Assembly (NCBI GenBank): GCA_946404035.1
Contig: CAMJCC010000002.1
Coordinates: 1-60,497 of the forward strand
DNA length: 60,497 bases
DNA from: an uncultured Clostridia bacterium
GTDB taxonomy: Bacteria; Bacillota; Clostridia; Oscillospirales; CAG-272
Reading direction: 5' to 3'
Positions within the stretch are counted from its first letter, which is position 1, and every line of letters begins with the position of its first letter. This document shows positions 9,304 to 31,755 of this stretch, piece after piece. Position numbers and translations under genes: made by a program. The notes below the pieces were generated by a model. That model was given only the letters and a program-made list of their open reading frames with translations. It had not been told where the DNA came from and made no database searches.

Positions 9304-10827
9304 GTGATCACGGTCCTTGTGCGCAAACTGCGCGAGTCGCTCGTTTCTGTCTTTCCCGTCGCGCTGATCGTTCTGATCCTCTCGCTTTTCCCCCTGGTCA
9401 CGCTCTCCTCCCGCGAGGTGACCGCGTTCCTTATCTGCGCCGTCGTGATGGTCGTCGGGATCGGGCTTTTCGGGATGGGGGCGGAGATGGCGATGTCCCC
9501 GATGGGCGAGCAGATAGGTTCCGGTCTGACCCGTTCGCGGAACCTGCCGCTTCTGCTTTCCGCCGCGTTCGTGATGGGGCTTTGCATCACGGTGGCGGAA
9601 CCCGACCTTTCGGTCCTCGCCGCGCAGGTGCGCGAGGTCGTGTCGGACAAACTGCTGGTCTTTTCGGTCGGGTGCGGGGTCGGCGTCTTTCTTCTGCTCT
9701 CGGTCCTGAGGATGATCTTCCGCGTCAACCTGTCCAATCTTTTGTTTTACTCCTACCTCGCCCTCTTTATGCTGACGGCGCTGGTGTTGGTCTACGGGGA
9801 CGGGGACTTTCTCGCGCTGGCGTTCGACGCGGGCGGCGTCACGACGGGACCCGTCACGGTGCCGTTTCTGATGGCTCTCGGTGTCGGGATCGCCGGTACG
9901 CTGGGCGGCAAGCACGCAAACGAAAACAGTTTCGGGATGATCGCCCTCTCCTCGGTCGGTCCGATGATCGTGGTCGCCGCCCTCGGGATCGGCGCGCGGG
10001 GCGGGCTCGCCTACGCGCTCCCCGACTATTCGATGGAAAGCAAACTCGGCGCGGGGATCCTCCGCGTCCTCCTGTCGACCGGGCGGGACGTCGGGATCGC
10101 CGTGGTCCTGATCGTTCTGTTCTTTACGGTCCTCGACCGCGTCTTCCTGCGTCTTCCGAAAAAGACGCTGATCCGCATCGCGGTCGGGATCGCGTACACC
10201 TTTGCCGGGCTGGTCCTCTTCCTCTCGGCGGCGACCGTCGGCTTTATGCCGGTCGGGTTCGCCCTGGGGCGGGGGATGGCGGAACGCCCGGCGCTTCTCC
10301 TCGCCTTCTCGTTTTTGCTCGGGGCGGTGGTCGTACTCGCCGAGCCGGCGGTGTTGGTCCTGAACCGGCAGGTCGAGCAGGTCACGGGCGGCACGGTCGA
10401 AAAACGCTCGATGATGATCGCGCTCTCCTGCGGCGTCGGGCTCTCGATCGGTCTTTCGATGCTCCGCATCTGGCTCGGGTTCAGCATCCTGTGCTACCTG
10501 ATCCCCGGCTATCTGCTCTCGCTCGGGCTCTCGTTCTTCGTCCCGAAACTCTATACCGCGATCGCCTTTGACTCCGGCGGGGTCGCGTCGGGTCCCCTGA
10601 CCTCGACCTTCATCCTCCCGTTCGCCGTCGGGGCTTGCACCGTTTTGCAGGGAGAGGGGAAGATCCTTTCCGACGCGTTCGGGATCGTCGCGATGGTCGC
10701 GATGACCCCGCTCATCACCATCCAGCTGCTTGGCTTCCGCGCCATTCTGGCGGGCAAGATCCGCGACCGGAGCTCGATGCGCCGGATCCTCGACGCCGCC
10801 GACGAAGAGATCATCCGGTTCATGTAA
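9304..10827 (+). CDS. DUF1538-family polytopic membrane protein (internally duplicated)
   Basis: About 12 predicted TM helices. Two half-repeats each contain FDAGGVTTGPVTVPF / FDSGGVASGPLTSTF, the signature I associate with DUF1538. GTG start chosen downstream of the promoter; the start is uncertain. Confidence 0.7.
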   Translation: MITVLVRKLRESLVSVFPVALIVLILSLFPLVTLSSREVTAFLICAVVMVVGIGLFGMGAEMAMSPMGEQIGSGLTRSRNLPLLLSAAFVMGLCITVAEPDLSVLAAQVREVVSDKLLVFSVGCGVGVFLLLSVLRMIFRVNLSNLLFYSYLALFMLTALVLVYGDGDFLALAFDAGGVTTGPVTVPFLMALGVGIAGTLGGKHANENSFGMIALSSVGPMIVVAALGIGARGGLAYALPDYSMESKLGAGILRVLLSTGRDVGIAVVLIVLFFTVLDRVFLRLPKKTLIRIAVGIAYTFAGLVLFLSAATVGFMPVGFALGRGMAERPALLLAFSFLLGAVVVLAEPAVLVLNRQVEQVTGGTVEKRSMMIALSCGVGLSIGLSMLRIWLGFSILCYLIPGYLLSLGLSFFVPKLYTAIAFDSGGVASGPLTSTFILPFAVGACTVLQGEGKILSDAFGIVAMVAMTPLITIQLLGFRAILAGKIRDRSSMRRILDAADEEIIRFM

Positions 10828-12808: not shown

Positions 12809-12837
12809 TTGACAGATTATAAAAAAAAGGATAAAAT
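12809..12837 (+). promoter_or_regulatory. Strong sigma-A-type promoter of the giant-protein operon
   Basis: TTGACA (12809-12814), exact 17-nt spacer, TAAAAT (12832-12837), inside an AT-rich gap. Confidence 0.75.
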
Positions 12838-12889: not shown

Positions 12890-12968
12890 ATATGTTAAAA
12901 GGGCAAAGCCACTGCGAAGTGGCGACGCAAAGCTAAAGGGACTCTATGAGTCAGCCAGTTGCAGCAGT
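12890..12968 (+). promoter_or_regulatory. c-di-GMP-I (GEMM) riboswitch aptamer
   Basis: AAAGGGCAAAGCCACU-GCGA-AGUGGCGACGCAAAGCUAAAGGGACUCUAUGAGUCAGCCAGUUGC. It aligns with Vc2 GGGCAAACC-AUUC-GAAA-GAGUGGGACGCAAAGCC... as I recall it. Shared elements are the GGCAAA, a P1 hairpin capped by a GNRA loop (GCGA), the invariant GACGCAAAGC junction, a second hairpin, and a CAGCCAGUUGC 3' strand. Confidence 0.75.
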
Positions 12969-12994
12969 GCAACGCGGCTGGCTTTTGTTATTTT
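12952..12994 (+). terminator. Intrinsic terminator (expression platform) overlapping the 3' strand of the aptamer
   Basis: CAGCC-AG-UUGCA-GCAG-UGCAA-CGC-GGCUG followed by GCUUUUGUUAUUUU. Its 5' arm is the same nucleotides as the aptamer's closing 3' segment. Confidence 0.7.
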
Positions 12995-13030
12995 CGGGCG
13001 CGCCGCGGCCGGACGAAAGGAGGGGAAAAG

Positions 13031-13996
13031 ATGAAAAAGATCGACAGATCGACGATGACGGTCATCCGTTTCGCGATCCCTCTTTGTCTTTCTTTTCTGA
13101 TCGTCGTCGGCGTCGTTCTGGTCGCCGTCCTGCACCCCTCGCTCGGCTGGTTCTCGGAAACCGAAAACCTGATGGTCGGGGGGATGAGCGTGGTCACCTC
13201 CACCGACGACTGCGATCTTCTGATCGAACGGGGGATCGAATACGACAGTAAAAAGGGTCCGAACCCGCCGTTGAGCAACCTCCCGCTCTATCCCGGGATC
13301 GTGGGGTTGAAGACCTTTTTCAGCGGCACCGGTTTTGACCTCGTAGCCGTTTCCACCGATACGTCGCCTAGTCTGGCGTTCGAGTTGGTGAACGAGTTGG
13401 TCCGTCCCGAGTTCGACGAGGACGTGAACGGCTCGGTCAATACCCGGTACCTGATGCCGGGCGCGTACGGAACGCTGAGCTTTTATATCCGTCCGTTCGA
13501 CGGGGTCGATCGGGTGGCGAAGACGTTTACGATCTCGCTGGCGGGGTATACCGCCATTGAGAGCGAGGGGGATTACGAGATCCAGCCCGTCACGTCCCAG
13601 AGCACGCTCGACCTGCTGAAAGGGCATATCCTCTTTTTCACCGGGCGGACGGAGGTAAACGACGCGTACCGGTACAGCGGACTGATCCGGGAGAGCTTCG
13701 TTTACGACACCGCCGAGCACGAAGTCTACGATGCGGAGAATAACCTCTACAAAGTCACCATTTATTGGGAGTGGCCCGAGACCTACCTCGACATCTCCCG
13801 CAAAACGTCAACCGAACTCGTGACCGATAAGTATCCCGTTGAGCTGACCGAGTACGTTTCCGGTAACCCCGAGTTCTTCTTCGCCATCAACCAGACGAGC
13901 GAAGAAGAGCGCGAACGCAGCGAGGGTTACGACGACGGCGACCAGAAGATCGGTAACCAGGTGCATTTCGTTTCGGTGACCGTTCAGGTAAACTGA
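13031..13996 (+). CDS. Secreted or anchored protein A (321 aa) with a TasA/camelysin-like (SipW-type) N-terminal motif; function unknown
   Basis: AGGAGGGG RBS. N-terminal TM/h-region followed by LGWFSETENLMVGGMSV (compare AYFSDKE...GTLDL of camelysin/TasA). Later LMPGAYGTLSFYIRP resembles the PGD-x...F-x-V strand of TasA-like jelly-rolls. Confidence 0.7.
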   Translation: MKKIDRSTMTVIRFAIPLCLSFLIVVGVVLVAVLHPSLGWFSETENLMVGGMSVVTSTDDCDLLIERGIEYDSKKGPNPPLSNLPLYPGIVGLKTFFSGTGFDLVAVSTDTSPSLAFELVNELVRPEFDEDVNGSVNTRYLMPGAYGTLSFYIRPFDGVDRVAKTFTISLAGYTAIESEGDYEIQPVTSQSTLDLLKGHILFFTGRTEVNDAYRYSGLIRESFVYDTAEHEVYDAENNLYKVTIYWEWPETYLDISRKTSTELVTDKYPVELTEYVSGNPEFFFAINQTSEEERERSEGYDDGDQKIGNQVHFVSVTVQVN

Positions 13997-14036: not shown

Positions 14037-14822
14037 GTGGAAGAAAGACCCGTGCGCGAGAACAGATCCGTTCTGCGCAAACTCGTTCCCATCGCGATCA
14101 CGATGGCGGCGCTTCTGTTGGCGCTCGCTTTGCCGGTCATGTCCTGGTTCATCACGAGTAAGAAACTGCTGGCGTACGCGCCGGTCACCTCCCCCGAGGC
14201 GCTCTATATCGGAGCGGGGCACCGGGATATCAGCAATGGTACTTTCGAGGATATCCGATACCTGTATTTCGACGGGATCAACGTCGCCGACGAATACTCC
14301 GACTACGTATTCTGCGTATACGGGACGGCGATCTCGGGTTTCTATCTGCAGCTCGGGTTCACGACCAACAACCAGTTCGTCTACGAGATCTACGTCGCGT
14401 CCGAGAGCGAGACCCCGCCGCCCGACCCGGCTACCGACTACGTGGACTACATCGTTCACGACGGTTCCAACAAGCACTACTACTACACCATCGATAACAC
14501 GGTCAACGGCGGCGATCCCATCTCCGGCACCTACCTGAACCTGGACACGACGGAGTATGCGACGAGCGGCCAGATGCTGGCAAACGAAAGCCGCGTGTCG
14601 CACGACTACGGCGAATACACCAATATCAATCGCTTCGCCAAGGCGCTCTACTGGCAGACCGACAGTGCGATCGACGGGGACACGCCGGAACTTGAGGGCG
14701 ACCAGACCTACGATTTCGTCGTCTATTTCATCCTGCGCGTCAATACGAACGGAAAGACGTCGAACGACCGCGAGACCGATATCCTCTGCATCTCGGTAAA
14801 ATCCGTCACCGTCGTCGACTGA
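14037..14822 (+). CDS. Secreted or anchored protein B (261 aa), function unknown
   Basis: GTG start 8 nt after AAAGGAGG. N-terminal TM followed by MSWFITSKKL. 40 nt downstream of gene A. Confidence 0.65.
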   Translation: MEERPVRENRSVLRKLVPIAITMAALLLALALPVMSWFITSKKLLAYAPVTSPEALYIGAGHRDISNGTFEDIRYLYFDGINVADEYSDYVFCVYGTAISGFYLQLGFTTNNQFVYEIYVASESETPPPDPATDYVDYIVHDGSNKHYYYTIDNTVNGGDPISGTYLNLDTTEYATSGQMLANESRVSHDYGEYTNINRFAKALYWQTDSAIDGDTPELEGDQTYDFVVYFILRVNTNGKTSNDRETDILCISVKSVTVVD

Positions 14823-14855: not shown

Positions 14856-15845
14856 ATGAAACCGAAAACAACGGTGAAAACGGAACGAACGGCGTGTCCG
14901 CAGCAAAAAGGCGACACGCGGCGTTTTGCCGTTATGCGGGTCGCGATCCTGCTCCTCATCCTTTCGCTGCTCGTCACCTCCGGGATCCTCACCTACGCCA
15001 AGTTCACGAACAGTTTGTACGCGCAGCGGACCGTCGCGGCGTACGACGCGGTGGGCGAACGTTTCTCCTCCAACTATCTGGTGGCGGGCGGCGGCGTTCG
15101 TACCGTTTCGGTCGCCTCGGCGCAAGAAACGCCGATCGCGATCGTGACCGTCTGCAACTACGAACAGGGCAAGCAGATGTATCCCAACACGCTGGATATC
15201 GATTACACGGTCACGCTGGAATTGGTCAAACTCAGCGGGGTGTCGTACGTTCCGGCGACCGCGGGTGAAGTCGGCGCCCACCAGATCACGGTCTCTCACG
15301 GCGGGCAAACCGTCTATCTGAACAGCGGAAATCTGAGCGACGACGAAACGTTTTCCGGCACGCTCTACGCCGACTACGGCGCCACGTCCGACGCCTACAC
15401 GGTGTCGTTCGAGCCGTATCAGAACCAGATCTTCCTCAGGATGACGGTGGTACCGGATGAAAATCTTGCTCTGTCGGACCTGATCGGGGTCCTGAAATCC
15501 GAGATCAAGATGGCGGGCGCGTCGAGTTCCTGGACGGGTTCGTTCCAGGACGCCACGGGGAACGCCCCCTCCTCCTACGACGGTTTCAACTACCGCGTGA
15601 ACGGGGTCGGAAGCGGGACCTTTACCCTGCGGTGGGACGCGACCAAGGTCGGGCTGAGCGATATGTCCCGTATGACCCTGCTCTCCATCCCGGGAGCAAC
15701 GGAGGACGGCAGCTCCATCACTTTCCCGGTCGACGCCGAGGACGTGAACCTGTACGACCTGCAATTCTATAAGATCAATATCACGAGCGAAACGTGGGAC
15801 GTGATGACGTCGAGCGTCGTCATCTACGAATTCGTCGCCTCCTGA
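14856..15845 (+). CDS. Secreted or anchored protein C (329 aa), function unknown
   Basis: GGAAAGGAG RBS. N-terminal TM followed by LTYAKFTNSLYA and ...ERFSSNYL. 33 nt downstream of gene B. Confidence 0.65.
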   Translation: MKPKTTVKTERTACPQQKGDTRRFAVMRVAILLLILSLLVTSGILTYAKFTNSLYAQRTVAAYDAVGERFSSNYLVAGGGVRTVSVASAQETPIAIVTVCNYEQGKQMYPNTLDIDYTVTLELVKLSGVSYVPATAGEVGAHQITVSHGGQTVYLNSGNLSDDETFSGTLYADYGATSDAYTVSFEPYQNQIFLRMTVVPDENLALSDLIGVLKSEIKMAGASSSWTGSFQDATGNAPSSYDGFNYRVNGVGSGTFTLRWDATKVGLSDMSRMTLLSIPGATEDGSSITFPVDAEDVNLYDLQFYKINITSETWDVMTSSVVIYEFVAS

Positions 15846-15870: not shown

Positions 15871-18800
15871 ATGCAAACGAGAAGAGAAAAAAGGAAGATC
15901 GCGTTACGCGCCGTGCTCTGGGCATGGGGCATCGTCCTCTCATGCCTTTTCGTGTTTCTCTCTGCCCGTACCGACCGCGTCGTCGCGGCGGAGCCCGAGC
16001 CGAGCACCATCGAGATCGGTTCGGTCGAGGATTTTGCCGCGTACAGTCTGGGTTACTCGACCGATGCTTACCACCCGAAAGATACCCTGGTCATCTCGCT
16101 CCAGTCCGGTCTTGCCATTACCGACAACAACTTTATCAGTCTCGGGACCGAGAGCCGTCCCTTTGCCGGGACCCTGCAGATACCGGAGGGCGGTATCGAC
16201 ACATTCTATCTCTACGAATGTCCGCTCTTCAATTACGTGACGACCGACCTGACCATCACGGGCGGCGGAACGGTCAAGATCCAGCGTGAAGAACTGACCG
16301 AACCCATCCCCTCCGGCGTTCTGACCAGCGGCGCGCTCTTTGCAAACCACGTCGTCGCCGGAACCAACGCGGCGAACTGGTCGATCTCTTTCGAGGGCGC
16401 CACCGCGTCGTCTTTCGGGGGGCTGATCGGTTCCATCGCCGACGGCTGTGACGTGACGGTCACCTTTACGAACGCCACCAACGTCCCGGCGATCGGATCG
16501 GGGAATATCGGTCTGATCTGCGGCACGCTGGGCGACGGCGCCTCGCTTGCCGTGACGACGGCGGGCTCGGGCTCCTCCGTTTCGGTCTCGTCGACCGGGG
16601 GACACGCCGGCGGTATCGTCGGTAAGATGGGCAACGACGCGATCCTGACCCTGAACTCCGCGAACAACTCCCGCGTGACGAACGTATCGACCTCCTACGG
16701 CTCGGGTTACGCCGGCGGGATCGTCGGCTACGTTTCCGGCGTGACCACGTCGACCGGGATCAAACGCGGCGCCGGGGTCGTCGACTATACCGTTTCGGGT
16801 CAAGTGACCGGCGGCGCCGGCGCGGGCGGGCTCTTCGGCTACTACCGCTCGAACAGCGACGGCGTTTCGTTCACGCTTCAGAACACCTACAATATCGCCA
16901 GCGGGACGCGGGTCTCCTCCTCCGGGAACACCGGGGGCGTGTTCGGCTATCTGCTGAACTACGGCAACAGTTTCGCTTTCGACGGAAACGCGACGGGCAG
17001 CGAAGTGTTCACCGTTACCCTCGCCGGCGGGACCGCCCGCGGCGGCGTTGCCGGTAAGTATTCGACCGACGCGCTGTCGAACGTCCTGTCGATCACGAAC
17101 ACGAATTTCACGATCACCGCCAACGCCGGCAACACGGCGAGCCGGACCATCGGCGGTCTTGTCGGACAGGTCGCCGACGCATCCCCGTACGCGCCGGCGT
17201 ATATCAGTATCAACGGTACCAACGTCATCACGTCGGACGGCACCGGGGACGGGAACGCCCCCGGCGGCGGTCTTGTCGGCGACGCCGGTACGGGCGGCAG
17301 CTTCATCGACGTTTCGGGCAACGTGACCGTTTCGGGACGGTTCTACGCGGGCCTTGTCGCAAAACTTTCGGAGGGCGTGCTCCGCATCGCGGGCACGACC
17401 GACCTTTCGGCGTTCCGCCGGCACGGCGGCAGCGGCGACCTCACGGCGGGCACCATCGTACAGACCCGCGGCAGATCGCTCATCTACTCGCTCGGAAGCG
17501 GAGAGGGCGACGGCTGGGTACTGAAACGCAACACGTCATTCAACAATATGATCGACGACGTGAACACGTGGGGCGAGGTGCTTCGCCTCGACGGGACCAC
17601 GCTGACCGAGAGCGGACTGTTCACCGTTGATCCGTCGGCGCATACCGTCACCGTGAAGAGCGGCGTCACCGAGATCAACGACGAGGCCGGTTTTGCGAAG
17701 ACCGCCCTGAATATCCAGCTCGGAACCGCGGCGGGAAAGGGCGCGCTGCTCTTTGAGACGTCGAACCAATCCGCCACGCTCCTTGGCGCGACCCTGACGC
17801 TCGGGGCAGATATCGACCTGACGGGGACCGGACTGACCGGGATGACGCGCGACGACGGCGGAGAAGTGACCATCGCGCAGAATAAAAAAGTAATGATGCC
17901 GACCTCCGCCGCCTTTACCGGCACCTTCAACGGGAACGGTCACACCCTGACCGTCGCCACCGGAGAGGTGTGGGGGCTGACCTCCTCGGGAGCCTCGCTT
18001 CCCGCCTCCTCCACGGAGGGGATGATCCGGCGTCACCGGTTCATCGGTTTGTTTGCGAACACCGACGGGGCGACGTTCTCCAACCTGACGCTGAACGGAT
18101 ATTATCATTTCATTCTGGATATCGATCCCACCTATATCGGCGGTCTGTCCGCCTATTCGACGGGCGGTCTGGATCTGACCGGCGTGACCGTGTCCGGGCT
18201 CTCGTTTGATTATTACCTCGGCGCGAGCTATACGGCGTATATCGGCGGAGCGGTCGCCTACGCCCTCGGCGACGGTCTTGACGTTTCGGTCACGGGCGGC
18301 AGTTACCGTCCGACGATGACCGATACCTCCGCGGCCGGCAGGACGAGCGGATCCGCCGGGGACAAGATCTCCTACGTCGGCGGCGTGATCGGCTTTGTCA
18401 ACGAGGGAACGGGGCAATCGATCGAATTCGACGATACCACGATCGGGATCACCTTTACCAAGACGGTGAACACCCAACGCGAGCCGTATTTCGGCGCGGC
18501 GATCGGGGCGACCTCGAACCAGGCGTACGTCAAGGATAACCGCACGATCACCCTGACCGACGTCGACGTGATGATGAGCGCGAACGCGGCGGCGGCGGCA
18601 GGCAAGGAGTACGGCGGTATCCTCGGGACTTCGTGGCTCTCCGCCGACGTTACGATCGACGGCGTGGACGTCGTATCCGCCTCGATCACCGAGAGCAATT
18701 CCGCGGCGACCAACTTCGGCGGACTGGTCCACACGGCGACGGGGCACTGGGACGTTCAGGACCTCACCGTGACGAGCGCCAACTTCGACGTGACGGCGAC

Positions 18801-21800
18801 CGGCTCCACCTTCGGGATGATCGCGAACCGGGCATACTCGACCCTGCTCTCGAACGAAACGGCGCTTTACCTGGAACTCGACGACGCGAACTACGATATC
18901 GACGCCGTGACCTTTACCGGATCGACCGGGAACTTCTCCTCGTTCGACGAGGTCGTGGCGAACACCCGTTTCAATACCAGGGATATCGTCCGGAACGGCA
19001 ACGCGGTCGTTTCGATCAAGACGAGTGGCAACGTCGTCAACACGACCGGCAGCCAGAATACCTATCTGAACAAGACGGCGTACGGTCAATCGGCCGTCGG
19101 CGCCGCCAATCCCGACGCGCGCTATTACTACAACGTCGCGCACGCGGTCACCAATATCGGGACCGATCCCAAATACAACCTCTACGCATGGAGCGTCAAG
19201 CAGTACGCGCACTCCACGCTTTCCGCGTGGTTCGGGTCCCCGTCGTCCACCTTTGCGGGGACGATCGACCTGACCGGGATCTCCTACTATCCCGTCGACC
19301 TGTCGGCCAACGTGACCTTCTCGTCGGCAACGGTCAAACTGGATAATATCAAAATGGAAGGGTTCGTCAAAAAAGGGTATTCGGGCGACGGTTCCAGCCG
19401 CACGACGCGCTCGGCGAGCCAGCACTATCTGATGCACGCCGCGCTGTTTTTGAACGCGACCGGCGATATCACCGCGACCGGAAGCCCGGCGGGACTGAAA
19501 TTGCAGGGCAACGTGCCGAAGATCTCGAACGATATCTGCGGGTTCCTGGTCGCCGGAACGTTCGGCGGTACCGATAACCCCAGCCCGACCGTACTGGACG
19601 TGACCGACCTGGTGCTCGACGGCGTGTACGTATCGAACGGCGACAACCACTTTACCGACACGACCTACGCGCCGCTTCTGGTCAATAAAGCAAGCCGGAA
19701 CACGACGGTCACGCTGGACGGCGTGACCGCGCCGAACTACGGCTCGGATCTTGCCGCGTCCAGTCTGCTCGGCGATATGGGCAACTCGACGGCGCACGGC
19801 GTTCATCTGACGTTCACCCGCATCGTCCTCGACGGACGGAAAAGTACTTCGACCGACCTCACCGCGTCGGTCTCCCAAGCTCTGGACGACGCTTACGACA
19901 CGTCGAGGTCGATCTTCAGCCGCGCCACCCTGCTCAACAGTTTCCTGTACGCGGGCGAGAGCTCCGGTACCTACACCTTTACGATCGACGAGGACTGGGA
20001 CACTTCCACCGGCGATCCGATCCACCACGTCACCTACGGCTACGAGATCACGACCTCGCTCGAACACGCGGGCAAGCAGAACATGTACAGCGGCTCGACC
20101 ACGATCTTTACCGATCCCTCGGCCCACGACAACGACGATCCGGACAGCGTTTACGATTTCACGGCGTACTTCCAGCGCTACGTTTACGTCGCCACCAATC
20201 CGGCGGAATACAAACACGAACTGGCGGTCAACATCACCTACTCCTCGACCATTTCGGGCTTCGGCAAATACGATCAGCCGTTTCTGATCGACAGCGGCGA
20301 GAAACTGAAGATCATCGCCAAGATCATCAAGGGCGACGACGTGACGAGTTCGGTGAAGATCAATCTGCCGGGCGACCTCACGGGTTACAACTACCAGACG
20401 ACGGGATACGGGGAATACCTGTATTCTTTCAGCACGTCGACCTACACGTCCTCCGACGGCGGCGCTCCGTCGATGGTCAACGCGAACGTCCGACGGTATC
20501 TTGCCGGGGCGTACTATGCGATCACCGAAGATATCACGCTGTCCTCCGACTACGAGGCGCTCGGACAGACCACCGCCGCCAACCCCGAATACGCCTTCCA
20601 CGGCGTGATCCTCGGTTCCGGCGGCGCGATCCGGAAGATCACCAACACGTCGACCCAGCCGCTGGTCTACTCTTCGGTCGGCAGCGTGTTCAAGGACCTC
20701 GTGGTCCACGTGGCGACCGACGTCAGCGGATCGCACGAGATCCGGCTTTCTTCCGACAATACCACCTATCAGTACGCCAGCGGGCAGACCTCCTACGGCG
20801 CTCTGGTGCGGCAGGTCCTCGGCGGCGACAACGTGATCGACGACGTGAAAGTCACCTTTGACACGTCGGCCGAGACCGCCGTCACTTTCGCGTACGAGGC
20901 GAGCGGATCGAACCGCGACCGGCTGATCCCGATCGGCGGCTATATCGGCACGCTGGTCAACGGCGGCGTGATCTTCCGCAACGTGACGAGCGCATACGTC
21001 GGATTGACCGCGGCGACGACCGCAAACGTCACGGACGCCGGTTACCTCTACGTCAACCCGATCATCGGGCGCGTGCTCGCCGGCTACGCGTTCCGCGAGG
21101 CGGACGATTACGCCGTGACGTCGGCGTTCTCGAACGGGACCAAGAACTACGTTCTGTCGGATCTTGACGACGGACTTGCAAAACTTTCGATCACCAATTC
21201 GTCCAGCCAGTACACCATCACGGTGCCGAACGGGCAGGCGATGTACGTCCTCGGCGCGATCGTCAACAGCGGCGCCGCCTCGGCGAACTACAACGCGTCG
21301 ACCGAACAGGCGTACGACGGCATGGGCGACGAAGCGAACGACACGTTCTGGCAGGCGTACCGCATCTGCACCGCGACCCGCGCCGGCGCGACCTACGACT
21401 ACGTCGGAACGCTCAATCCGGCGTCCGATCCGGAGAGCGCCGCTTGCGCCGACTATACGGCGGCGGGACTTGACCGCTACGATATGAACGGCACCCACTC
21501 CGTGACCAAGAAGAGCGGCGAGACCGTCACGCTTCCGAACGGGGACCTGAAAGGGATCCCGTATATCATCCGTACCTATACCGCGAAGAACGGGAACGTT
21601 TACTACGCTCGCACTCTGACCCGCCGTACCAACAACAAGATCTCGATCACGAACAATATCGACGTCGCCGCCGGGTTCCGCGGGATCGGCAGCATCTATA
21701 CCGACGCAACGTCCTACGGGAGCGACCGGGTGCATCTCGGGATCGATACGATGTACGGCAGTACGGGAAGCACGACCATCACCCTGCACATGACGTTTAA

Positions 21801-24800
21801 CGAATACGACGCGTCGGTCACGTCCTACCGCGCCGTGAACGCCAATACGCACATTCCCTACGAGGCGGCGGTGCCCTTCGGCAGCAACGCCGGGTTCGGT
21901 CTCTTCAACCGGCTGTATCAGACAGGGTCGACCAACTATATCGAGAACTTTACCCTCTCGGGCGACTTGTATTACGGGCTGCGGGACGTGTCCGACGGCA
22001 GCGCCCTGAATTTGACGTACGACAACCTCTCGTCGACTTCGATCCTGAACGTCGGCGCGCTTGCCGGAACGGTCTACACCAACAACACGTCCTCTTTCCA
22101 GACCAGTTTGCGGGTCCGCAACGTGACGATCACGGGTCTTACGGTCACGGGACCGAAGTATGCCGGAGGGTTGGTCGGCTGCTTTGCGAACACAGTGGCA
22201 AATGCCGACGCAAAATACAAAAGCTACGTCACGAATTGCCCGGTTTCGACCACGACGATCACGGCAGGGCAGGCGGCGGGCAGTTATTTCGGCTACGCCA
22301 ACGTCGCCGGCAACCAGTCCAGCGCCAGCTCGGCGCGCCTCATCATCTCGGGCGATACGACGCTGGAGAACGGCGTGTCACGGAAGACGACGATCGCCCC
22401 GACGGCGATCACCGTCACCGGTTCCTGCCCGGCGGGAACGTGGCTGGAACGTATCAGCCCCACCGCGGGCGGCGTGATCGGCTGCGCCGACGTCGCGTTT
22501 GCTGTCAGCGGGAACTACTTCCTCGTCATTCAGCATATCAAGGTCGTCGGCGGCACCATCACCGCGGCGAGATCGAGCGTGACCGACTTTGGAACGAGAT
22601 CCAAGACGGGTCTGCCGTCCGCGGCGGGGATCATCGGTAAGATCCGTGCCGGCAGAACTTCGGTGACCGACTGCGAGGTCCTGCACGTCGACCTCAACTC
22701 CGACGTGACGGGCGGCGTGCTCGGATACGCCGTCATTCCGAAAAACTCGTCCTACGACTTCGAGCGGATCCTGATCGACGGCGACAAGGGCAACTCGACC
22801 GTCGCCGCCATGACGGCGCGGGTGCACGCGGGCGGTATCGTCGGCGAGTACTACTCCAAGAACCCCTCGAACTATACGTTCGCGGATCTTACCATCAGAA
22901 ACTACTCGTTCGTTTCCGAGTACGTCGGCGATTACGGAACGGCGGGCGGCGTCATCGGCCACACCTATATCGAGGCGAGCAACAATAAGGCGTTCCAGTT
23001 CCGCAATATCGAGGTGACCGGCTGTACGATGACGGTGGATACCACGGGCGTGAACTATACCAAGCACAAGGGCGTCGGCGGTCTTTTCGGCGCGCTCCAG
23101 GGCAACAGCAACAACGCGAAGTACACCGGGTACAACTTCCTCGTGAACAACGTCACCTTTGCGGGTTCCGGGACCGCGAACGCGGGCGCCGTCGTCGGCA
23201 ACAATATCAGCAACACGGCGAGGATCCAACTGGTCGGCGTCAGCGCGGACGTGGATCCGGGGACCAAGACGCTTACCTGGACCGAAAACAACAACAGCGG
23301 CTATTCCGCCTACGCCAACTACTCGCAGGCGACGGCCAATACGGCTTTCACCGCGCTGAGCGGCGCGGGAATGGCCGCGGTCGCCGCACCGTACGCCACG
23401 GTGAACCCCGTCTGTACGATCGGGGGACTGAAGATCGTCGGCGACGGCGTCTCGGACGAGATCGCAAACCTGCCGATCCAGTCGATCCTTGCCGGTTACG
23501 CGGCAGACAGCAAGCGGTACGCGTACGCCGCCTCCGCCTACTACACGGGCGGTTCGGGCATCACCAACTACACGGCGTTCAACAACGCGAAGTCGGGCGC
23601 GATCATCATGTTCTCCGACGAGGCGTACGGCTACGACGGCGACGACGATTTCCCCGTGATCCTGATCGAAACGACCAACGAGGACGATTCGCACAGACTG
23701 ATCAACAGTTACATCCGGCTGCTCACCAACACCACGTTCAACTTCGGGACCGACGTCGCCGGACAGTTCGAGGTCGCCATCTACAAGATGGCGTACGACG
23801 ACGAGAACGAAGTCTTCGTCCTGTCCAGCGGCGACGCGAGCTTGAAACGGACGGGCGGCAAGTTCCGGATGATCAACTCGGCGTACGACAGCGGTAAAGC
23901 GCAATGCTCGCTGATCGACGTGCGGTTCTTCGACCCGTCCGACGGGACGACGGTGGCGTACCATCTGTATATCCCGGTCTTCATCAAAAAGGTCCTGACC
24001 TTTGATTTCGACGTGGCGGCGCTGAGCGGCACCAACTACCTCGAGGGGCAGTACACCTCTCTCTTCGGTCAGCGTCTGATCGCAAACGTCGGCGCGCCGA
24101 TCACGCTCTACTTCCGCTACACCTACTCGCGGACCGCCGCCGAATGGGAATCCGCCATCAACAACGGTGAGCCGCTGCTCCGGCACTACGGCAAGAAACT
24201 GATCCTGCACAAGGCGAACAACAACGAGATCTTAAAGGATTTCGACGAGGGCAAACAGACCGAGACCATCCTGGTCCTGGTGGACAAGAACGACGGCGGA
24301 AGACCCTATTACGCCAAACTCAGCGACGCGCTCTCGGACGACGTCATCGACCTGTCGGTCTTCCAGTCGTCGATGAGGATCGACGGGAACGGGGACTACG
24401 TCTTCTCGGGCGCCTACTTCATCCCGCTCGACTTCTCGGATATGCTCTCCTATACCGCCTCGGTCGCGGTCGACGGATCGCTCGTCGCCTGCACACCCTC
24501 CGAAGCGACGGTCCGGACGTGGCAGGGCTACCGCCTTGCTACCTCCGCCGAACTGGCAAACGGCGGGATCGATAAATACGCGCTCTCGGCGTCTGTTTCC
24601 GCCGACGGGACGTACGTCCGCTGCCCCGTCGAGGGCGCACAGATCGTGATCTCGGGTTACGGCTACTGCCGTGCGACCGCCGCCCAACTGGAGGACAACG
24701 GGACCGATAAGTACGCGATCACGGCGTCGGTTTCGGGCGAGGGGACCTACGTCGCCTGCGCCGCCGGATCCGCGATGGTCCGGGTGTACGGGCAGGGTTA

Positions 24801-26301
24801 CCGTTCCGCCACCGACGAGGAACTCGGGGACAACGAGATCGACAAGTACACCGTTACGGTCGACGCGATCCCCGGCGGCGAACTCGTCGAAAAGTATTAC
24901 CTCTCGATCTTCACCGACGACGGCGAGGACCTCGAAGAGGAAGGAGAGGGCGAAGAGGGCGAAGAAGGCGAAGAAGAGGAAGACAAGGGTTACGATCTCT
25001 TCCATTACTTCTACGTCACCACGCCCCAGTCGCTCAACGACGGCGTGACCTATCCGGCGCGCGTTATGGATCCGAGCGATCTGTCCGCAATGATCCACCT
25101 GGTCATGGGGAAGATCTTCGACCACTCCGATCTGACCATCGTATCGACCTCGCGATACGGTTCTGCTGTGCTGATGACGAGCGGCGGCAACGACGCTCTG
25201 ATCGTTTCGATGTCGGTGCAGATCGGCCTTTCGGAAAGTCTCGGGGCTTTGCGTAACGAGGTGAAGGGCTACGTCGCCGCCACCGGCTTCTATCAGAGTT
25301 TCCTGGTCTACCTGACGCGCAACGAGGGAAGTTCGCAGACCAAAGCGATCCTCGGCAATCCGACGGCGTCGGGCGGTTACGCGGTCGACTACGTGATGAA
25401 CGGGGAGGCCGACGTCGCGCTCGGCAATTACGCGAACGCCAATATCCACGTGACGCAGATCTATGCGGAGTTCGTGACGGGCAACCTCGGTCCCGCGTTC
25501 GCGGGCGAGGGCAACTACGTCGTCGAGATCAACGCCGAGGTCATGCTGGAATATCTGCAGGCGGGTGCGGTGCTGGCACAGTTCCCGGGCAGAAACGGCA
25601 ATGACGATGACGGCGTGACCCTGTCCGCGTCCTCCAACATCGCGTTCTCCGCCGCGGCGACGTCGTACAGTAAGAACTCGATCAACCGCGAAGAGGATAG
25701 TCCCGTGCGTTCCTATTACTCCGAAGCCGAGGTCGACAACGCGACCATCGCCCTCCAGCCTTTCGGCGACAGACAGGGCGACTACACCCCGTACGGTATC
25801 AACGCGCTGAACGACCCGCCCGAAACGCTCGAGATCTTCGCGACGATGGACTTTACCCCGATCTATCGGCAGGTGAACGGACACTATACCAGCGCGGTCG
25901 TTACCGCCACCCTGCGGCAGAAGCAGAACGACGGTTCCTACTCCGAATACGATCTCACGGATATCGACCAATATATCACGTCGTTCTCCGTCGGCGAGTA
26001 CGAGGCGACGACCACAGGGGAGCATCCGAAGTCCTATTCCGTCACCATCCCCGCCGGCAGTACGACCGTCGGCGCCGTTTCGATCGAGTTCCCGCACATC
26101 TACTTCTCGGTCAAGACGTTCCCGCCCGGATCCGATCCGGAATTCGAGGGCTTCTATTACGGCAACTACCGTCTGACCGTGACCATCGTTCTGCTGGACG
26201 AACACGGCGACGAGATCGCGGCGTCCAAGGCGTCCGACTACGTGATCTACACCAACGCAAAGGTCCGTCCGAGTTACATTCCCGCCGTCGTCGGACCGTG
26301 A
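15871..26301 (+). CDS. Giant (3,476 aa) secreted GLUG-motif / beta-solenoid-like repeat protein with no recognisable cell-wall anchor
   Basis: Uninterrupted 10.4-kb ORF 25 nt after gene C. Signal peptide ...LSARTDRVVA|AEP. About 30 G-G-[ILV]-[IVF]-G motifs by eye (HAGGIVGK, YAGGIVGY, GAGGLFGY, TIGGLVGQ, YAGGLVGC, TAGGVIGH, GVGGLFGA...). A triplicated 45-aa module and an acidic E/G tract lie near the C-terminus. Confidence 0.9.
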   Translation: MQTRREKRKIALRAVLWAWGIVLSCLFVFLSARTDRVVAAEPEPSTIEIGSVEDFAAYSLGYSTDAYHPKDTLVISLQSGLAITDNNFISLGTESRPFAGTLQIPEGGIDTFYLYECPLFNYVTTDLTITGGGTVKIQREELTEPIPSGVLTSGALFANHVVAGTNAANWSISFEGATASSFGGLIGSIADGCDVTVTFTNATNVPAIGSGNIGLICGTLGDGASLAVTTAGSGSSVSVSSTGGHAGGIVGKMGNDAILTLNSANNSRVTNVSTSYGSGYAGGIVGYVSGVTTSTGIKRGAGVVDYTVSGQVTGGAGAGGLFGYYRSNSDGVSFTLQNTYNIASGTRVSSSGNTGGVFGYLLNYGNSFAFDGNATGSEVFTVTLAGGTARGGVAGKYSTDALSNVLSITNTNFTITANAGNTASRTIGGLVGQVADASPYAPAYISINGTNVITSDGTGDGNAPGGGLVGDAGTGGSFIDVSGNVTVSGRFYAGLVAKLSEGVLRIAGTTDLSAFRRHGGSGDLTAGTIVQTRGRSLIYSLGSGEGDGWVLKRNTSFNNMIDDVNTWGEVLRLDGTTLTESGLFTVDPSAHTVTVKSGVTEINDEAGFAKTALNIQLGTAAGKGALLFETSNQSATLLGATLTLGADIDLTGTGLTGMTRDDGGEVTIAQNKKVMMPTSAAFTGTFNGNGHTLTVATGEVWGLTSSGASLPASSTEGMIRRHRFIGLFANTDGATFSNLTLNGYYHFILDIDPTYIGGLSAYSTGGLDLTGVTVSGLSFDYYLGASYTAYIGGAVAYALGDGLDVSVTGGSYRPTMTDTSAAGRTSGSAGDKISYVGGVIGFVNEGTGQSIEFDDTTIGITFTKTVNTQREPYFGAAIGATSNQAYVKDNRTITLTDVDVMMSANAAAAAGKEYGGILGTSWLSADVTIDGVDVVSASITESNSAATNFGGLVHTATGHWDVQDLTVTSANFDVTATGSTFGMIANRAYSTLLSNETALYLELDDANYDIDAVTFTGSTGNFSSFDEVVANTRFNTRDIVRNGNAVVSIKTSGNVVNTTGSQNTYLNKTAYGQSAVGAANPDARYYYNVAHAVTNIGTDPKYNLYAWSVKQYAHSTLSAWFGSPSSTFAGTIDLTGISYYPVDLSANVTFSSATVKLDNIKMEGFVKKGYSGDGSSRTTRSASQHYLMHAALFLNATGDITATGSPAGLKLQGNVPKISNDICGFLVAGTFGGTDNPSPTVLDVTDLVLDGVYVSNGDNHFTDTTYAPLLVNKASRNTTVTLDGVTAPNYGSDLAASSLLGDMGNSTAHGVHLTFTRIVLDGRKSTSTDLTASVSQALDDAYDTSRSIFSRATLLNSFLYAGESSGTYTFTIDEDWDTSTGDPIHHVTYGYEITTSLEHAGKQNMYSGSTTIFTDPSAHDNDDPDSVYDFTAYFQRYVYVATNPAEYKHELAVNITYSSTISGFGKYDQPFLIDSGEKLKIIAKIIKGDDVTSSVKINLPGDLTGYNYQTTGYGEYLYSFSTSTYTSSDGGAPSMVNANVRRYLAGAYYAITEDITLSSDYEALGQTTAANPEYAFHGVILGSGGAIRKITNTSTQPLVYSSVGSVFKDLVVHVATDVSGSHEIRLSSDNTTYQYASGQTSYGALVRQVLGGDNVIDDVKVTFDTSAETAVTFAYEASGSNRDRLIPIGGYIGTLVNGGVIFRNVTSAYVGLTAATTANVTDAGYLYVNPIIGRVLAGYAFREADDYAVTSAFSNGTKNYVLSDLDDGLAKLSITNSSSQYTITVPNGQAMYVLGAIVNSGAASANYNASTEQAYDGMGDEANDTFWQAYRICTATRAGATYDYVGTLNPASDPESAACADYTAAGLDRYDMNGTHSVTKKSGETVTLPNGDLKGIPYIIRTYTAKNGNVYYARTLTRRTNNKISITNNIDVAAGFRGIGSIYTDATSYGSDRVHLGIDTMYGSTGSTTITLHMTFNEYDASVTSYRAVNANTHIPYEAAVPFGSNAGFGLFNRLYQTGSTNYIENFTLSGDLYYGLRDVSDGSALNLTYDNLSSTSILNVGALAGTVYTNNTSSFQTSLRVRNVTITGLTVTGPKYAGGLVGCFANTVANADAKYKSYVTNCPVSTTTITAGQAAGSYFGYANVAGNQSSASSARLIISGDTTLENGVSRKTTIAPTAITVTGSCPAGTWLERISPTAGGVIGCADVAFAVSGNYFLVIQHIKVVGGTITAARSSVTDFGTRSKTGLPSAAGIIGKIRAGRTSVTDCEVLHVDLNSDVTGGVLGYAVIPKNSSYDFERILIDGDKGNSTVAAMTARVHAGGIVGEYYSKNPSNYTFADLTIRNYSFVSEYVGDYGTAGGVIGHTYIEASNNKAFQFRNIEVTGCTMTVDTTGVNYTKHKGVGGLFGALQGNSNNAKYTGYNFLVNNVTFAGSGTANAGAVVGNNISNTARIQLVGVSADVDPGTKTLTWTENNNSGYSAYANYSQATANTAFTALSGAGMAAVAAPYATVNPVCTIGGLKIVGDGVSDEIANLPIQSILAGYAADSKRYAYAASAYYTGGSGITNYTAFNNAKSGAIIMFSDEAYGYDGDDDFPVILIETTNEDDSHRLINSYIRLLTNTTFNFGTDVAGQFEVAIYKMAYDDENEVFVLSSGDASLKRTGGKFRMINSAYDSGKAQCSLIDVRFFDPSDGTTVAYHLYIPVFIKKVLTFDFDVAALSGTNYLEGQYTSLFGQRLIANVGAPITLYFRYTYSRTAAEWESAINNGEPLLRHYGKKLILHKANNNEILKDFDEGKQTETILVLVDKNDGGRPYYAKLSDALSDDVIDLSVFQSSMRIDGNGDYVFSGAYFIPLDFSDMLSYTASVAVDGSLVACTPSEATVRTWQGYRLATSAELANGGIDKYALSASVSADGTYVRCPVEGAQIVISGYGYCRATAAQLEDNGTDKYAITASVSGEGTYVACAAGSAMVRVYGQGYRSATDEELGDNEIDKYTVTVDAIPGGELVEKYYLSIFTDDGEDLEEEGEGEEGEEGEEEEDKGYDLFHYFYVTTPQSLNDGVTYPARVMDPSDLSAMIHLVMGKIFDHSDLTIVSTSRYGSAVLMTSGGNDALIVSMSVQIGLSESLGALRNEVKGYVAATGFYQSFLVYLTRNEGSSQTKAILGNPTASGGYAVDYVMNGEADVALGNYANANIHVTQIYAEFVTGNLGPAFAGEGNYVVEINAEVMLEYLQAGAVLAQFPGRNGNDDDGVTLSASSNIAFSAAATSYSKNSINREEDSPVRSYYSEAEVDNATIALQPFGDRQGDYTPYGINALNDPPETLEIFATMDFTPIYRQVNGHYTSAVVTATLRQKQNDGSYSEYDLTDIDQYITSFSVGEYEATTTGEHPKSYSVTIPAGSTTVGAVSIEFPHIYFSVKTFPPGSDPEFEGFYYGNYRLTVTIVLLDEHGDEIAASKASDYVIYTNAKVRPSYIPAVVGP

Positions 26302-26390: not shown

Positions 26391-26404
26391 CCCCCGCAAA
26401 CGGC

Positions 26405-26439
26405 GGGCGCCCGGAACATTCCGGGCGCCCGTTGTTTTT
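26405..26439 (+). terminator. Intrinsic terminator of the giant-protein operon
   Basis: gggcgcccggaa/ttccgggcgccc hairpin followed by gttgttttt. Confidence 0.8.
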
Positions 26440-29993: not shown

Positions 29994-30368
29994 ATGACCG
30001 AGGAGCCGGGGATCGGCGCGACGTGTCCCGCCGACGCACCGGAGCGGCTGATCCGCTATTTCCGGGAGAGCGCCGCCGGGGGAGAGCTGCCCACCTTTTC
30101 GGGTGCGGCGGAGTTGCTCGGGGTCGACGTTGCGACGCTCGGGGAGTGGAAAGAAAACGATCCGGCGTTTGCCCGCGCCTACGCGGAGTGCCGCGCGGTC
30201 CTTGCCGACCATCTGCTCCGGCAGGGGCTGCAGAAACGCTACGACGCCTCGCTCGTCAAATTCCTGCTCCCCTCTTTCGGGGTGGGGACCGACGGGGACG
30301 AGGGACCCGACGAACTCTCGGTGAAGATCGAGGTCCTCGAGGGAGGGATCCCGAAAAATGCCGTCTGA
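29994..30368 (+). CDS. Putative terminase small subunit (HTH)
   Basis: Position immediately upstream of and overlapping terL. The ...FSGAAELLGVDVATLGEWKENDPAFARAY... pattern is typical of small terminases. Confidence 0.6.
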   Translation: MTEEPGIGATCPADAPERLIRYFRESAAGGELPTFSGAAELLGVDVATLGEWKENDPAFARAYAECRAVLADHLLRQGLQKRYDASLVKFLLPSFGVGTDGDEGPDELSVKIEVLEGGIPKNAV

Positions 30369-31734
30369 GGGCGTCCGTTTCAAGGTGACGCCGCGGCAGA
30401 GGGCGTTCATTGCGGCGCCCGAGCGGGAGGTCCTGTTCGGCGGGGCGGCGGGGGGAGGCAAGTCGTTCGGGCAACTGATCGACGCCTTCCTCTACGCGCT
30501 GAAATACCCGCGTTCCAAACAGCTGATCCTGCGCCGTACCTACCCCGAACTCGAAAAGTCGCTCATCCGGGTCAGCCAGGCGATCTTCCCCCGTTCGGTC
30601 TATACCTACAACGGGAGCAGCCACGTCGGGCGCTTCAAAAACGGCTCGCTGATCGACTTCGGTTATTCGGCGAGCGAGGCGGACGTCTTTCAGTACCAAT
30701 CGGCGGAATACGACGTCATCCGCTTTGACGAACTGACCCACTTTACCGAGTTCCAGTACGTCTATATGCTCTCCCGGCTCCGGGGGGTCAACGGCTACCC
30801 GAAGCAGATCAAGGCGAGCACCAATCCGGGCGGGATCGGTCACGCTTGGGTGAAGGAACGGTTCGTCGATCCCTCGCCCCCCGATACGTCCTTTATCGGC
30901 GAGGACGGGGGAAGCCGGATCTTCCTCCCCGCCAAGATCGACGACAATCCCTTTCTCACTCGGGCGGACCCCGCGTACAGGGAGCGCCTCCTCGCTCTGC
31001 CGGAGGATCAGAAACGCGCGCTCCTCTACGGGGACTGGAACCTGCTGGAGGGCAGGTTCTTCCGGGAGTTCCGCTATGATCTGCACACCGCGGATCCATT
31101 CCCGATCCCGGCGCATTGGCGGAAATACCGGACACTCGACTACGGACTTGACCGGCTCGCCTGTCTTTGGGCGGCACTCGATCCCGACGGCAACGTCTGG
31201 ATCTATCGGGAGGTCTGCCGCTCCGATCTCATCATCTCGGACGCCGCCCGCGCCATCCTCTCGGCGGAGGGAGAGGGGGAGAGGATCTACGCGACCCTCT
31301 CGCCCCCGGACCTCTTCGCCCGGAGCCAGGAGAGCGGACGCTCGCGCGCCCTGCTTTTCGCGGAGTACGGCGTGCATCTGACCAAGACCGAAAACGATCG
31401 GGAAACGGGCTGGCTCGCGGTCAAGGAACTGTTGAAAGAGGAGGGGGACCGTCCGCCCCGGCTCCGGATCTTCCGGACCTGTACCGAACTGATCCGGTGC
31501 CTTTCCATGATCGAGTGCGATCCGGCGCGACCGGGGGACGTGCGGAGCGAACCTCATCGCCTGACCCACGCCCCCGACGCGCTCCGGGGCTTCGCGATCT
31601 ATTACGCGCGCCCCGATCCGGCGGAGGAGCGCGTCCGGCAACGGCGCTGGACGCCCGATCAGTGGGAGGACTACGAAAACGCCGACCCGGCGGGGCGGGA
31701 ATACCTGCTTCGCCGGTACGGCAGACCCGAGTAA
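30358..31734 (+). CDS. Terminase large subunit
   Basis: Walker A FGGAAGGGKSF, Walker B/coupling VIRFDELTHF, and a C-terminal nuclease-like region. 458 aa. Confidence 0.88.
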   Translation: MPSEGVRFKVTPRQRAFIAAPEREVLFGGAAGGGKSFGQLIDAFLYALKYPRSKQLILRRTYPELEKSLIRVSQAIFPRSVYTYNGSSHVGRFKNGSLIDFGYSASEADVFQYQSAEYDVIRFDELTHFTEFQYVYMLSRLRGVNGYPKQIKASTNPGGIGHAWVKERFVDPSPPDTSFIGEDGGSRIFLPAKIDDNPFLTRADPAYRERLLALPEDQKRALLYGDWNLLEGRFFREFRYDLHTADPFPIPAHWRKYRTLDYGLDRLACLWAALDPDGNVWIYREVCRSDLIISDAARAILSAEGEGERIYATLSPPDLFARSQESGRSRALLFAEYGVHLTKTENDRETGWLAVKELLKEEGDRPPRLRIFRTCTELIRCLSMIECDPARPGDVRSEPHRLTHAPDALRGFAIYYARPDPAEERVRQRRWTPDQWEDYENADPAGREYLLRRYGRPE

Positions 31735-31755
31735 AAAGCAAAGGAGAATACGAAT

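Follow-up and report, generated by a model that had tools for sequence, protein, structure and literature searches.

A conserved four-gene cassette encoding a giant adhesin-like protein behind a predicted cyclic di-GMP ON switch in an uncultured Clostridia bacterium and some of its relatives

Here we describe a cassette of four genes in a 60,497-nucleotide stretch of DNA from an uncultured Clostridia bacterium (contig CAMJCC010000002.1 of GenBank assembly GCA_946404035.1; the whole stretch is called the window below). The last gene encodes a protein of 3,476 amino acids, hereafter the giant, and the three genes directly ahead of it, A, B and C, encode smaller proteins that also look secreted. 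The giant belongs to a large, conserved and wholly unannotated family, and the four genes keep their order in every related locus where it could be followed; in the window they lie behind a cyclic di-GMP (c-di-GMP) riboswitch which we predict to be an ON switch. The parts are of known kinds, namely a giant Gram-positive adhesin-like protein, a c-di-GMP riboswitch and a set of signal-peptidase substrates. By analogy with the TapA-SipW-TasA system, we give an even chance to the view that together they make up an adhesin or matrix assembly that is induced by c-di-GMP and independent of sortase. In the libraries and the literature that we searched, we found no description of the giant's family, of the three partner families or of their invariant association.

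Using an N-terminal alignment of the giant as the query, we scanned one genome from each species and obtained 47 loci, of which 31 (L003 to L033) hold clear orthologues; their hosts are metagenome-assembled genomes (MAGs) of uncultured Clostridia, Oscillospiraceae and Ruminococcus, the cultured Huintestinicola butyrica, and Collinsella, including C. aerofaciens. The nearest giants are 62-63% identical to that of the window. When hidden Markov models (HMMs) of A, B and C were iterated over the fetched loci, and only loci with enough upstream DNA were counted, the order A-B-C was found directly ahead of the giant in 29/29 genome-scan loci and in 5/5 further metagenomic contexts, an arrangement that is invariant across two phyla (Oscillospiraceae, Ruminococcus and H. 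butyrica on the one hand, Collinsella on the other). In the window, the gaps A-B, B-C and C-giant measure 40, 33 and 25 nt, and each of the four genes has a Shine-Dalgarno-like sequence. The original prediction, made from this DNA by itself, had singled out the co-transcribed small proteins as candidates for retaining or assembling the giant, and the invariant synteny supports them as the best candidates available. At 90% identity, the A family comprises at least 911 clusters and the B family at least 484, none of them named and none with a Pfam domain; A, B and C themselves matched nothing in Pfam or NCBIfam.

The giant reads as a single ATG-initiated frame, uninterrupted as originally described, and its product has a high content of G, T, A and S. 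It is complete and intact in 20 loci, at lengths of 3,193-3,665 residues. An exhaustive profile search with its C-terminal third (996 residues) against representative clusters at 50% identity recovered this region in 921 clusters at E<=1e-3, of which 452 reached E<=1e-30, and nearly all full-length matches were to proteins of 3.1-3.9 thousand residues, at their extreme C termini. Given the intact orthologues and the many C-terminal clusters, we conclude that the giant is under purifying selection and is neither a pseudogene nor an artefact, the only exceptions to its intactness being two split copies. In one of these (L002, a Hadza-gut MAG), the giant is divided into two frames at positions 9986-10029, at a (TA)5 run; in the other (L007, the cultured H. 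butyrica Sanger_06), it is divided at 14373-14431 by a short deletion of about 20 nt. The two look like the same lineage, and the splits could reflect phase variation, culture-associated decay or assembly error.

Read by eye, the N terminus of the giant consists of the K/R-rich MQTRREKRK, about 20 hydrophobic residues and then VVAA-EPEPS, with a putative cleavage at VAA↓EP, and a K/R-rich-then-hydrophobic start is common to all 13 of the orthologues that we aligned. It therefore looks like a Sec signal; the claim of a signal peptide stands in that sense, its qualification as "classical" coming from inspection of the sequence. At the other end (...YTNAKVRPSYIPAVVGP), all 13 orthologues stop 6-15 residues past a conserved YTNAK strand and lack a C-terminal hydrophobic segment with a charged tail, and LPXTG (LP.TG) is absent from their whole length. 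The one similar string in the window's giant, LPGDLTG, is internal as first noted (residues 1499-1505) and is not kept in the 13 orthologues. Pfam and NCBIfam scans of the giant gave nothing even at E<=1, with no SLH, CWB, Por or autotransporter domain, and the 13 orthologues gave no Pfam match at E<=0.01, GLUG included; nor did the giant or its orthologues match type V autotransporter, SLH, choline-binding, Por (type IX secretion) or LysM anchoring domains in either library. The giant, as a sequence and as an alignment profile, and the profiles of A, B and C matched PDB sequences at chance level only (PduA, E 0.016; an archaeal "flagellin" on the hydrophobic helix, E 0.24; cowpea mosaic virus coat protein, E 1.2). 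A lipoprotein anchor was rejected, as the Cys of VLSC in the signal region of the window's giant is not conserved among the orthologues. These results support the view, already taken in the original prediction, of the giant as a secreted protein without a recognisable anchor, and no anchoring, autotransporter or enzyme family that would have contradicted it came to light.

The body of the protein carries a real repeat signature, far above chance, although it had at first been overcounted. Strict G-G-[ILV]-[IVF]-G motifs number 13, and relaxed forms 16 and 22, against 0.17 +/- 0.41 strict and 2.1 +/- 1.4 relaxed motifs expected from 500 shuffles. This compares with the roughly 30 motifs, in at least four blocks and 20-35 residues apart, that had been estimated by eye; we find three blocks, between nt 16330 and 23199, in which successive motifs are mostly 35-45 residues apart. 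The description as a GLUG-motif protein likewise gave way, the Pfam GLUG model PF07581 matching neither the giant nor any of 12 orthologues. Self-BLAST revealed no significant internal repeats, because the repeats are too degenerate. In the alignment of the 13 orthologues, the conserved elements are the G-G-h-h-G blocks (h, hydrophobic), an F-T-G-T-F-N-G-N-G-H motif ahead of block 2 (in the window, block 2 comes after the conserved FTGTFNGNGHTL motif at residues 682-693), T-G-C-G-T-Y-N-D-P-Y-x-I and Y-A-F-R-G-V-I-V-G around residues 1463-1584, and the final (V/I)-Y-T-N-A-K strand. From the repeat length of about 36 residues, the three blocks, which lie in the N-terminal two-thirds, are probably β-solenoid; the very long parallel β-helix of the original prediction is likewise a reading of the repeat pattern.

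A solenoid of this kind might instead be a catalytic parallel β-helix, that of a polysaccharide lyase, glycosidase or protease, so that the giant would be a secreted enzyme acting on plant fibre or mucin and its immunoglobulin-like (Ig-like) domains would serve in carbohydrate binding or as spacers. Pectate lyases and many glycosidases usually adopt a right-handed β-helix, the hosts are fibre-associated Clostridia of rumen and gut, and some loci do have glycoside hydrolase neighbours (a cellulase in L002, a rhamnosidase in L055, a glycoside hydrolase family 2 gene in L057); these neighbours, however, vary between loci, and conserved partners under c-di-GMP control would be atypical of loci for carbohydrate-active enzymes. 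Moreover, the giant and its orthologues gave no Beta_helix, NosD or Pectate_lyase match in Pfam, the 13 orthologues gave no lyase, hydrolase or peptidase match in Pfam or NCBIfam, and no PDB sequence was matched. We therefore consider an enzymatic giant very unlikely.

The C-terminal third is of a different nature. An AlphaFold model of its 996 residues, built with 15 homologues, is mostly β, with a predicted local distance difference test (pLDDT) score of 66 overall and 70-88 within domains. Foldseek matched it, at probabilities of about 1.0, to the Ig-like domains of PrgB (E 1.8e-12), to integrin alpha legs, to Cna, ClfB, SdrD and Bap, and to pilins of Streptococcus sanguinis and Actinomyces, and no anchoring domain appeared among the matches. 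The model thus suggests that the last 1,000 residues resemble tandem Ig-like β-sandwiches and not a β-helix, and it supports this fold class, not a DEv-IgG/CnaB-type subtype. Two low-confidence inserts in this region are particular to the window's giant, a triple expansion of a Cys-containing unit and an acidic run that is missing in most aligned homologues.

The absence of any known kind of anchor, together with the secreted appearance of all four products, could also mean that the giant is not retained but leaves the cell, in soluble form or as part of a matrix, where it might serve as a biofilm scaffold, an agglutinin, or a bacteriocin- or toxin-like effector, with A to C acting as secretion chaperones, co-secreted cofactors or protective partners. 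A tie between expression and c-di-GMP would suit a matrix component, and TasA, too, belongs to the matrix and is not anchored to the wall (PMC9674648). We nevertheless think this distinctly unlikely: neither the 13 orthologues nor the partners contain a toxin, enzyme or immunity domain, and the Ig-like C-terminal arrays resemble those of surface adhesins and pilins. If by matrix one means a co-polymer, this explanation overlaps with the assembly that we favour, the two differing only in whether the assembly stays on the cell.

As for the partners, profile-profile comparison (hhalign) found A and B to have only their N-terminal regions in common, with a probability of 88%, and C to be unrelated to either. 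The region common to A and B consists of a charged head, about 20 uncharged residues and an invariant W-F. All 29 A, all 112 B and all 19 C sequences have A, G or S at position -1 relative to the predicted cleavage; position -3 is S, C or T in A, V, A, S, T, G or I in B, and small or aliphatic in all three families, the C proteins having the same pattern ahead of x-Y-T in 19/19 cases; and Pro occupies -4 in 77/112 B sequences. Small residues at -3 and -1 constitute the (-3,-1) rule of signal peptidase I. Since the pattern is kept in 160/160 sequences, across three families and two phyla, we infer that A, B and C lose their signal peptides by cleavage, which in A and B would expose W-F-[TSA]-x-[NQ]-[KR]. 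Beyond this segment, B folds as a β-sandwich: its AlphaFold2 model, built with 120 homologues (pLDDT 88.7, predicted template modelling score 0.76), consists of a helix (residues 11-43), a low-confidence linker (46-50) and the sandwich itself (55-257). Foldseek found no relative of this model in the PDB, the best match having an E value of 8.7e-3, a probability of 0.2 and a template modelling (TM) score below 0.3.

We considered and rejected a type IV pilin or pseudopilin identity for A to C. They have no class III signal, no G↓(F/M)TLxE and no conserved Glu5, and their conserved motif sits past the hydrophobic stretch, whereas a pilin class III signal would precede it. In Ruminococcus loci, extra A-like paralogues (some of which score as A/B hybrids) occur up- or downstream of the cassette (L009, 19191-20342; L012, 21312-22457; L018, 21123-22538; L020, 20494-21564 and 4004-6755), which suggests that the subunit set can expand.

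The leader ahead of A contains a class I c-di-GMP aptamer, identified by a full-length match to its model, and an expression platform in which the 5' arm of the terminator is also the 3' strand of aptamer helix P2 (GAGUCAGCC...), so that terminator and aptamer are mutually exclusive in RNAfold predictions. Both this overlap and the U-tract after the hairpin are kept, with sequence changes, in the four leaders that we folded (the window, L053, L004 and L003). Because the terminator borrows the P2 strand, a ligand-stabilised aptamer should prevent termination, and the leader is accordingly predicted to be a c-di-GMP ON switch. The expectation that orthologues would always sit behind A to C and a GEMM element was borne out for the three genes but not for the riboswitch, which is present in 5 of about 29 loci (the window, L003, L004, L053 and L057) and in none of the roughly 24 others scanned. 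L053 is syntenic with the window and the neighbourhood of L057 differs, from which it appears that riboswitch and cassette move together. In L050, where a relative of the cassette is 63% identical, the 170 nt ahead of A (8783-8952) gave no c-di-GMP-I match that reached the gathering threshold. Other loci instead have genes for c-di-GMP enzymes: a GGDEF-EAL gene lies directly upstream of A in L056 (6647-8989), an EAL gene heads the extended operon described below in L006 (1-564) and L010 (2-391), and in L001 (4943-11850) three GGDEF/EAL genes follow a 967-residue gene that matches the giant's C-terminal third only. None of these four loci has the riboswitch. The association with c-di-GMP therefore recurs in three forms.

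Ten genome loci carry a conserved module upstream of A, and L056 has a module of the same kind; loci with such an extended operon include L007 (167-6723), L006, L010, L016, L021, L023, L024, L026, L027 and L056. The module encodes a polytopic membrane protein of about 528 residues, a DUF2357 protein (665-900 residues in the ten genome loci, 665-1080 across the extended operons listed), a peptidase of family S26 and a pair of small proteins (144 and 86 residues). A further S26 peptidase and an additional A/B-like gene are often present as well. DUF2357 is elsewhere linked to nuclease-like proteins, and its presence in this context is puzzling. All four of the peptidases scored, whose genes adjoin A, passed the NCBIfam model for archaeal/ER-type (endoplasmic reticulum-type) signal peptidases, TIGR02228, at 82-93 bits against a cutoff of 51.85, and their other strong match was the SipW model. 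Counting homologues and genes annotated as Peptidase_S26 together, such a gene is present in a total of 11 loci.

Taken together, these features suggest the following scheme. The cassette would be transcribed as one unit, A-B-C-giant, from the promoter-riboswitch leader; at high c-di-GMP, the folded aptamer would sequester the terminator arm, read-through would follow and all four proteins would be made. All four would presumably be exported via Sec, and a type I signal peptidase, perhaps the dedicated SipW-type enzyme in the many related loci that have one, would trim A, B and C, leaving W-F-[TSA]-x-[NQ]-[KR] exposed on A and B and x-Y-T on C. The giant would be an adhesin-like rod, with probable β-solenoid blocks followed by the Ig-like C-terminal array. 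Lacking any anchor of the sortase, SLH, choline-binding or lipid type, it may be held or polymerised outside the cell through its three partners, the likeliest route being their exposed N-terminal segments, much as TapA and TasA use donor strands after SipW cleavage. Of its elements, the analysis established which genes are present and in what order, the statistics of the motifs, the identity of the riboswitch, the fold of B and the fold class of the giant's C terminus; cleavage, the ON logic, the β-solenoid and the part played by A to C in assembling or retaining the giant are predictions.

Several observations weigh against this proposal. The 60-kb window has no SipW-type peptidase gene and none of the module genes, and such a peptidase is also absent beside the cassette in L011, L017, L030, L050, L053, L055 and L057; if the window's cassette needs the module genes, they must be located elsewhere in the genome. 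A, B and C, and likewise 29 members of the A family, do not match Peptidase_M73, the family of TasA and camelysin; hhalign gave the A family a probability of 0.06% against TasA (with a TasA sequence validated against 8AUR); and Foldseek of the B model does not retrieve the TasA jellyroll (5OF1/8AUR). On these three grounds we reject homology of A and B to TasA at the sensitivity reached. With regard to the giant, the β-solenoid is read from the repeat pattern by itself, and the C-terminal model is of only moderate confidence, with low TM-scores in Foldseek (0.08-0.14), because relative domain orientations are not reproduced. Finally, the hydrophobic segments of A to C are long (a median of 20-21 uncharged residues), and the predicted helix of B is continuous; both would fit an uncleaved membrane anchor as well.

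Indeed, A, B and C may be uncleaved single-pass type II membrane proteins, whose β-sandwich ectodomains would form a platform that holds the Sec-exported giant non-covalently, as a tethered rod spanning the wall. Such an arrangement would account for the long uncharged stretches, for the single unbroken helix that runs through W-F in the B model, for a giant with no anchor of its own, and for the fact that most loci, the window included, have no dedicated peptidase adjoining the cassette. It would leave unaccounted for the exceptionless small residues at -3 and -1 and the Pro at -4 in B, which are needed for a cleavage site but not for an anchor, and the two SipW-type peptidases embedded in the extended operon of 10-11 loci; moreover, AlphaFold routinely renders signal peptides as helices. 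On balance, we regard a membrane platform as unlikely and continue to favour cleavage of the three partners.

A bolder version of the favoured reading, to which we are inclined only tentatively and which we think will more probably turn out wrong than right, is that the cassette represents an undescribed system by which monoderm gut bacteria (Oscillospiraceae, Ruminococcus, Collinsella) assemble surface fibres or adhesins without sortase. Subunits of three new families, processed by SipW-type peptidases to W-F N termini, would polymerise or dock by strand complementation and would display or anchor a β-solenoid and Ig-like giant of about 3,500 residues, and c-di-GMP would switch everything on, via a riboswitch or via GGDEF/EAL proteins encoded nearby. 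In function, the system would correspond to chaperone-usher or TasA fibres, but with unrelated folds. It is poorly understood how Gram-positive bacteria keep very large adhesins at their surface when they use no sortase, S-layer or choline-binding anchor, and if the partners do assemble or tether the giant, they would provide a new route of surface display along with three new protein families. The cassette is widespread in common human-gut and rumen taxa, including the cultured C. aerofaciens and H. butyrica, and has neither a name nor Pfam or NCBIfam coverage. It would also connect c-di-GMP with adhesion in gut commensals in a way open to direct testing, for which the riboswitch version is a simple genetic handle.

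Table 1. Coordinates of the cassette, its leader and the parts of the giant within the window
Feature	Position (nt)	Strand	Basis or remark
Sigma-70-like promoter, TTGACA-17-TAAAAT, 11/12 matches	12809..12837	+	Consensus match only; 2 found in the region vs 1.2 expected
c-di-GMP-I (GEMM-I, RF01051) aptamer	12892..12966	+	59.1 bits vs gathering 35; E 4.9e-9; full-length model match (positions 1-87)
Predicted expression platform: terminator hairpin, then UUUUGUUAUUUU	12948..12996	+	RNAfold minimum-free-energy structure
Gene A, 321 aa; predicted cleavage after ...HPSLG, mature N terminus WFSETEN; no known family	13031..13996	+	Open reading frame, family searches, alignment
Gene B, 261 aa; predicted cleavage after ...PVMS, mature N terminus WFITSKK, then β-sandwich; no known family	14037..14822	+	Open reading frame, searches, AlphaFold
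Gene C, 329 aa; predicted cleavage after ...ILTYA, mature N terminus KFTNS; no known family	14856..15845	+	Open reading frame, searches, alignment
Giant, 3,476 aa	15871..26301	+	ATG start, no interruption
Signal-peptide-like N terminus of giant, aa 1-40	15871..15990	+	Read by eye from sequence
G-G-h-h-G block 1, aa 154-470, 9 relaxed motifs, period ~36 aa	16330..17280	+	Motif count
G-G-h-h-G block 2, aa 792-919, 4 motifs	18244..18627	+	Motif count
G-G-h-h-G block 3, aa 2062-2443, 8 motifs	22054..23199	+	Motif count
C-terminal third, aa 2481-3476, resembling tandem Ig-like β-sandwiches; ends in (V/I)YTNAK(V/I) strand, no anchor motif	23311..26298	+	AlphaFold, Foldseek and alignment
Three tandem 44-45-aa Cys-containing units, aa 2872-2997	24484..24861	+	Single copy in most aligned homologues; AlphaFold confidence <50
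Acidic low-complexity GEE-rich run DDGEDLEEEGEGEEGEEGEEEEDKG, aa 3016-3040, window-specific	24916..24990	+	Encoded by 9/18-nt tandem repeat
Intrinsic-terminator-like hairpin at operon end, 18 bp, 12 G-C pairs	26398..26437	+	Follows the giant

Beyond the hairpin at the end of the operon, the genes lie on the opposite strand; those between the cassette and a prophage-like region are minus-strand genes for GGGtGRT, NifU-like and PduL proteins. The prophage-like region (about 30358-46000, plus strand) includes genes for a terminase large subunit (30358-31734), a portal protein (31756-33528) and a 900-residue BspA-type leucine-rich-repeat protein (37258-39960). A prophage or tail-fibre origin of the giant was rejected: a PHROGs search gave no match, and the prophage is set apart from the cassette and absent from the syntenic loci. 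On the other side of the cassette, a tetrahydrofolate (THF) riboswitch (4822-4925, minus strand, 75 bits) lies upstream of a gene (2928-4787, minus strand) for a fused energy-coupling factor (ECF) transporter S-component and folylpolyglutamate-synthase-like protein (Mur ligase). This pair of riboswitch and fused gene recurs in the syntenic L053.

The giant can be compared with several known systems. GLUG-motif proteins (Pfam PF07581) include streptococcal immunoglobulin A1 (IgA1) proteases and many surface proteins of Firmicutes, and we take the giant's repeats to resemble theirs by eye, the HMM test being negative. As in those proteins, the repeat unit, about 36 residues long, has G-G-(L/I/V)-(V/I/F)-G at its centre and a short hydrophobic-polar strand after it; in the giant, F-x-G-x-F-N-G-N-G-H-x-I and G-x-G-x-x-x-x-P-(Y/F)-x-I motifs come ahead of the repeats. 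The giant differs from GLUG-motif proteins in that it has no peptidase domain and no match to PF07581. With the surface adhesins Cna, ClfB and SdrD (the MSCRAMMs), Bap, PrgB and the sortase pilins, the giant has in common its large size, its likely Sec export and, as modelled, tandem Ig-like domains in its C-terminal third (Foldseek E 1e-12 to 1e-5, at the probability given above). It differs from LPXTG-anchored adhesins in that none of the 13 orthologues has the motif, the hydrophobic segment or the charged tail, in that the Ig-like part forms the C-terminal end and not a stalk above an anchor, and in that Pfam adhesin domains are absent.

For the leader, the closest precedent is Bc2, a c-di-GMP-I riboswitch upstream of the collagen adhesion protein Cap in Bacillus thuringiensis, which has been found experimentally to be an ON switch whose ligand favours read-through (PMC4933901). 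In both cases, a class I c-di-GMP aptamer lies in the 5' leader of a large adhesin or adhesin-like gene, with terminator/anti-terminator logic that is here predicted. Cap is wall-anchored and binds collagen, whereas the giant lacks an anchor and shares its transcript with three uncharacterised partners, and its ON behaviour is predicted from structure.

The closest working analogy for the cassette as a whole is TapA-SipW-TasA of Bacillus subtilis, together with CalY/camelysin and the SipW-BsaA pair of Clostridium perfringens; we mean by this an analogy, not membership. There are clear differences: the cassette has three partner families where the tapA operon has two, plus a protein of some 3.5 thousand residues without a counterpart, and the window has no SipW gene and appears to be controlled by c-di-GMP and not by SinR. 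The likenesses are nonetheless several. TapA resembles TasA in an N-terminal donor-strand segment, which SipW cleavage frees (PMC9674648), and A and B, too, are similar in their N-terminal segment alone. As in TasA (...GTWA↓AFNDIK), the signal peptide stops right before a conserved aromatic-containing segment (here ...S-L-G↓W-F-T-x-N, with the cleavage predicted). In 11 related loci, though not in the window, the operon itself includes genes for archaeal/ER-type, SipW-like peptidases. And as with TasA, the role that we propose for the products is one in matrix or adhesion.

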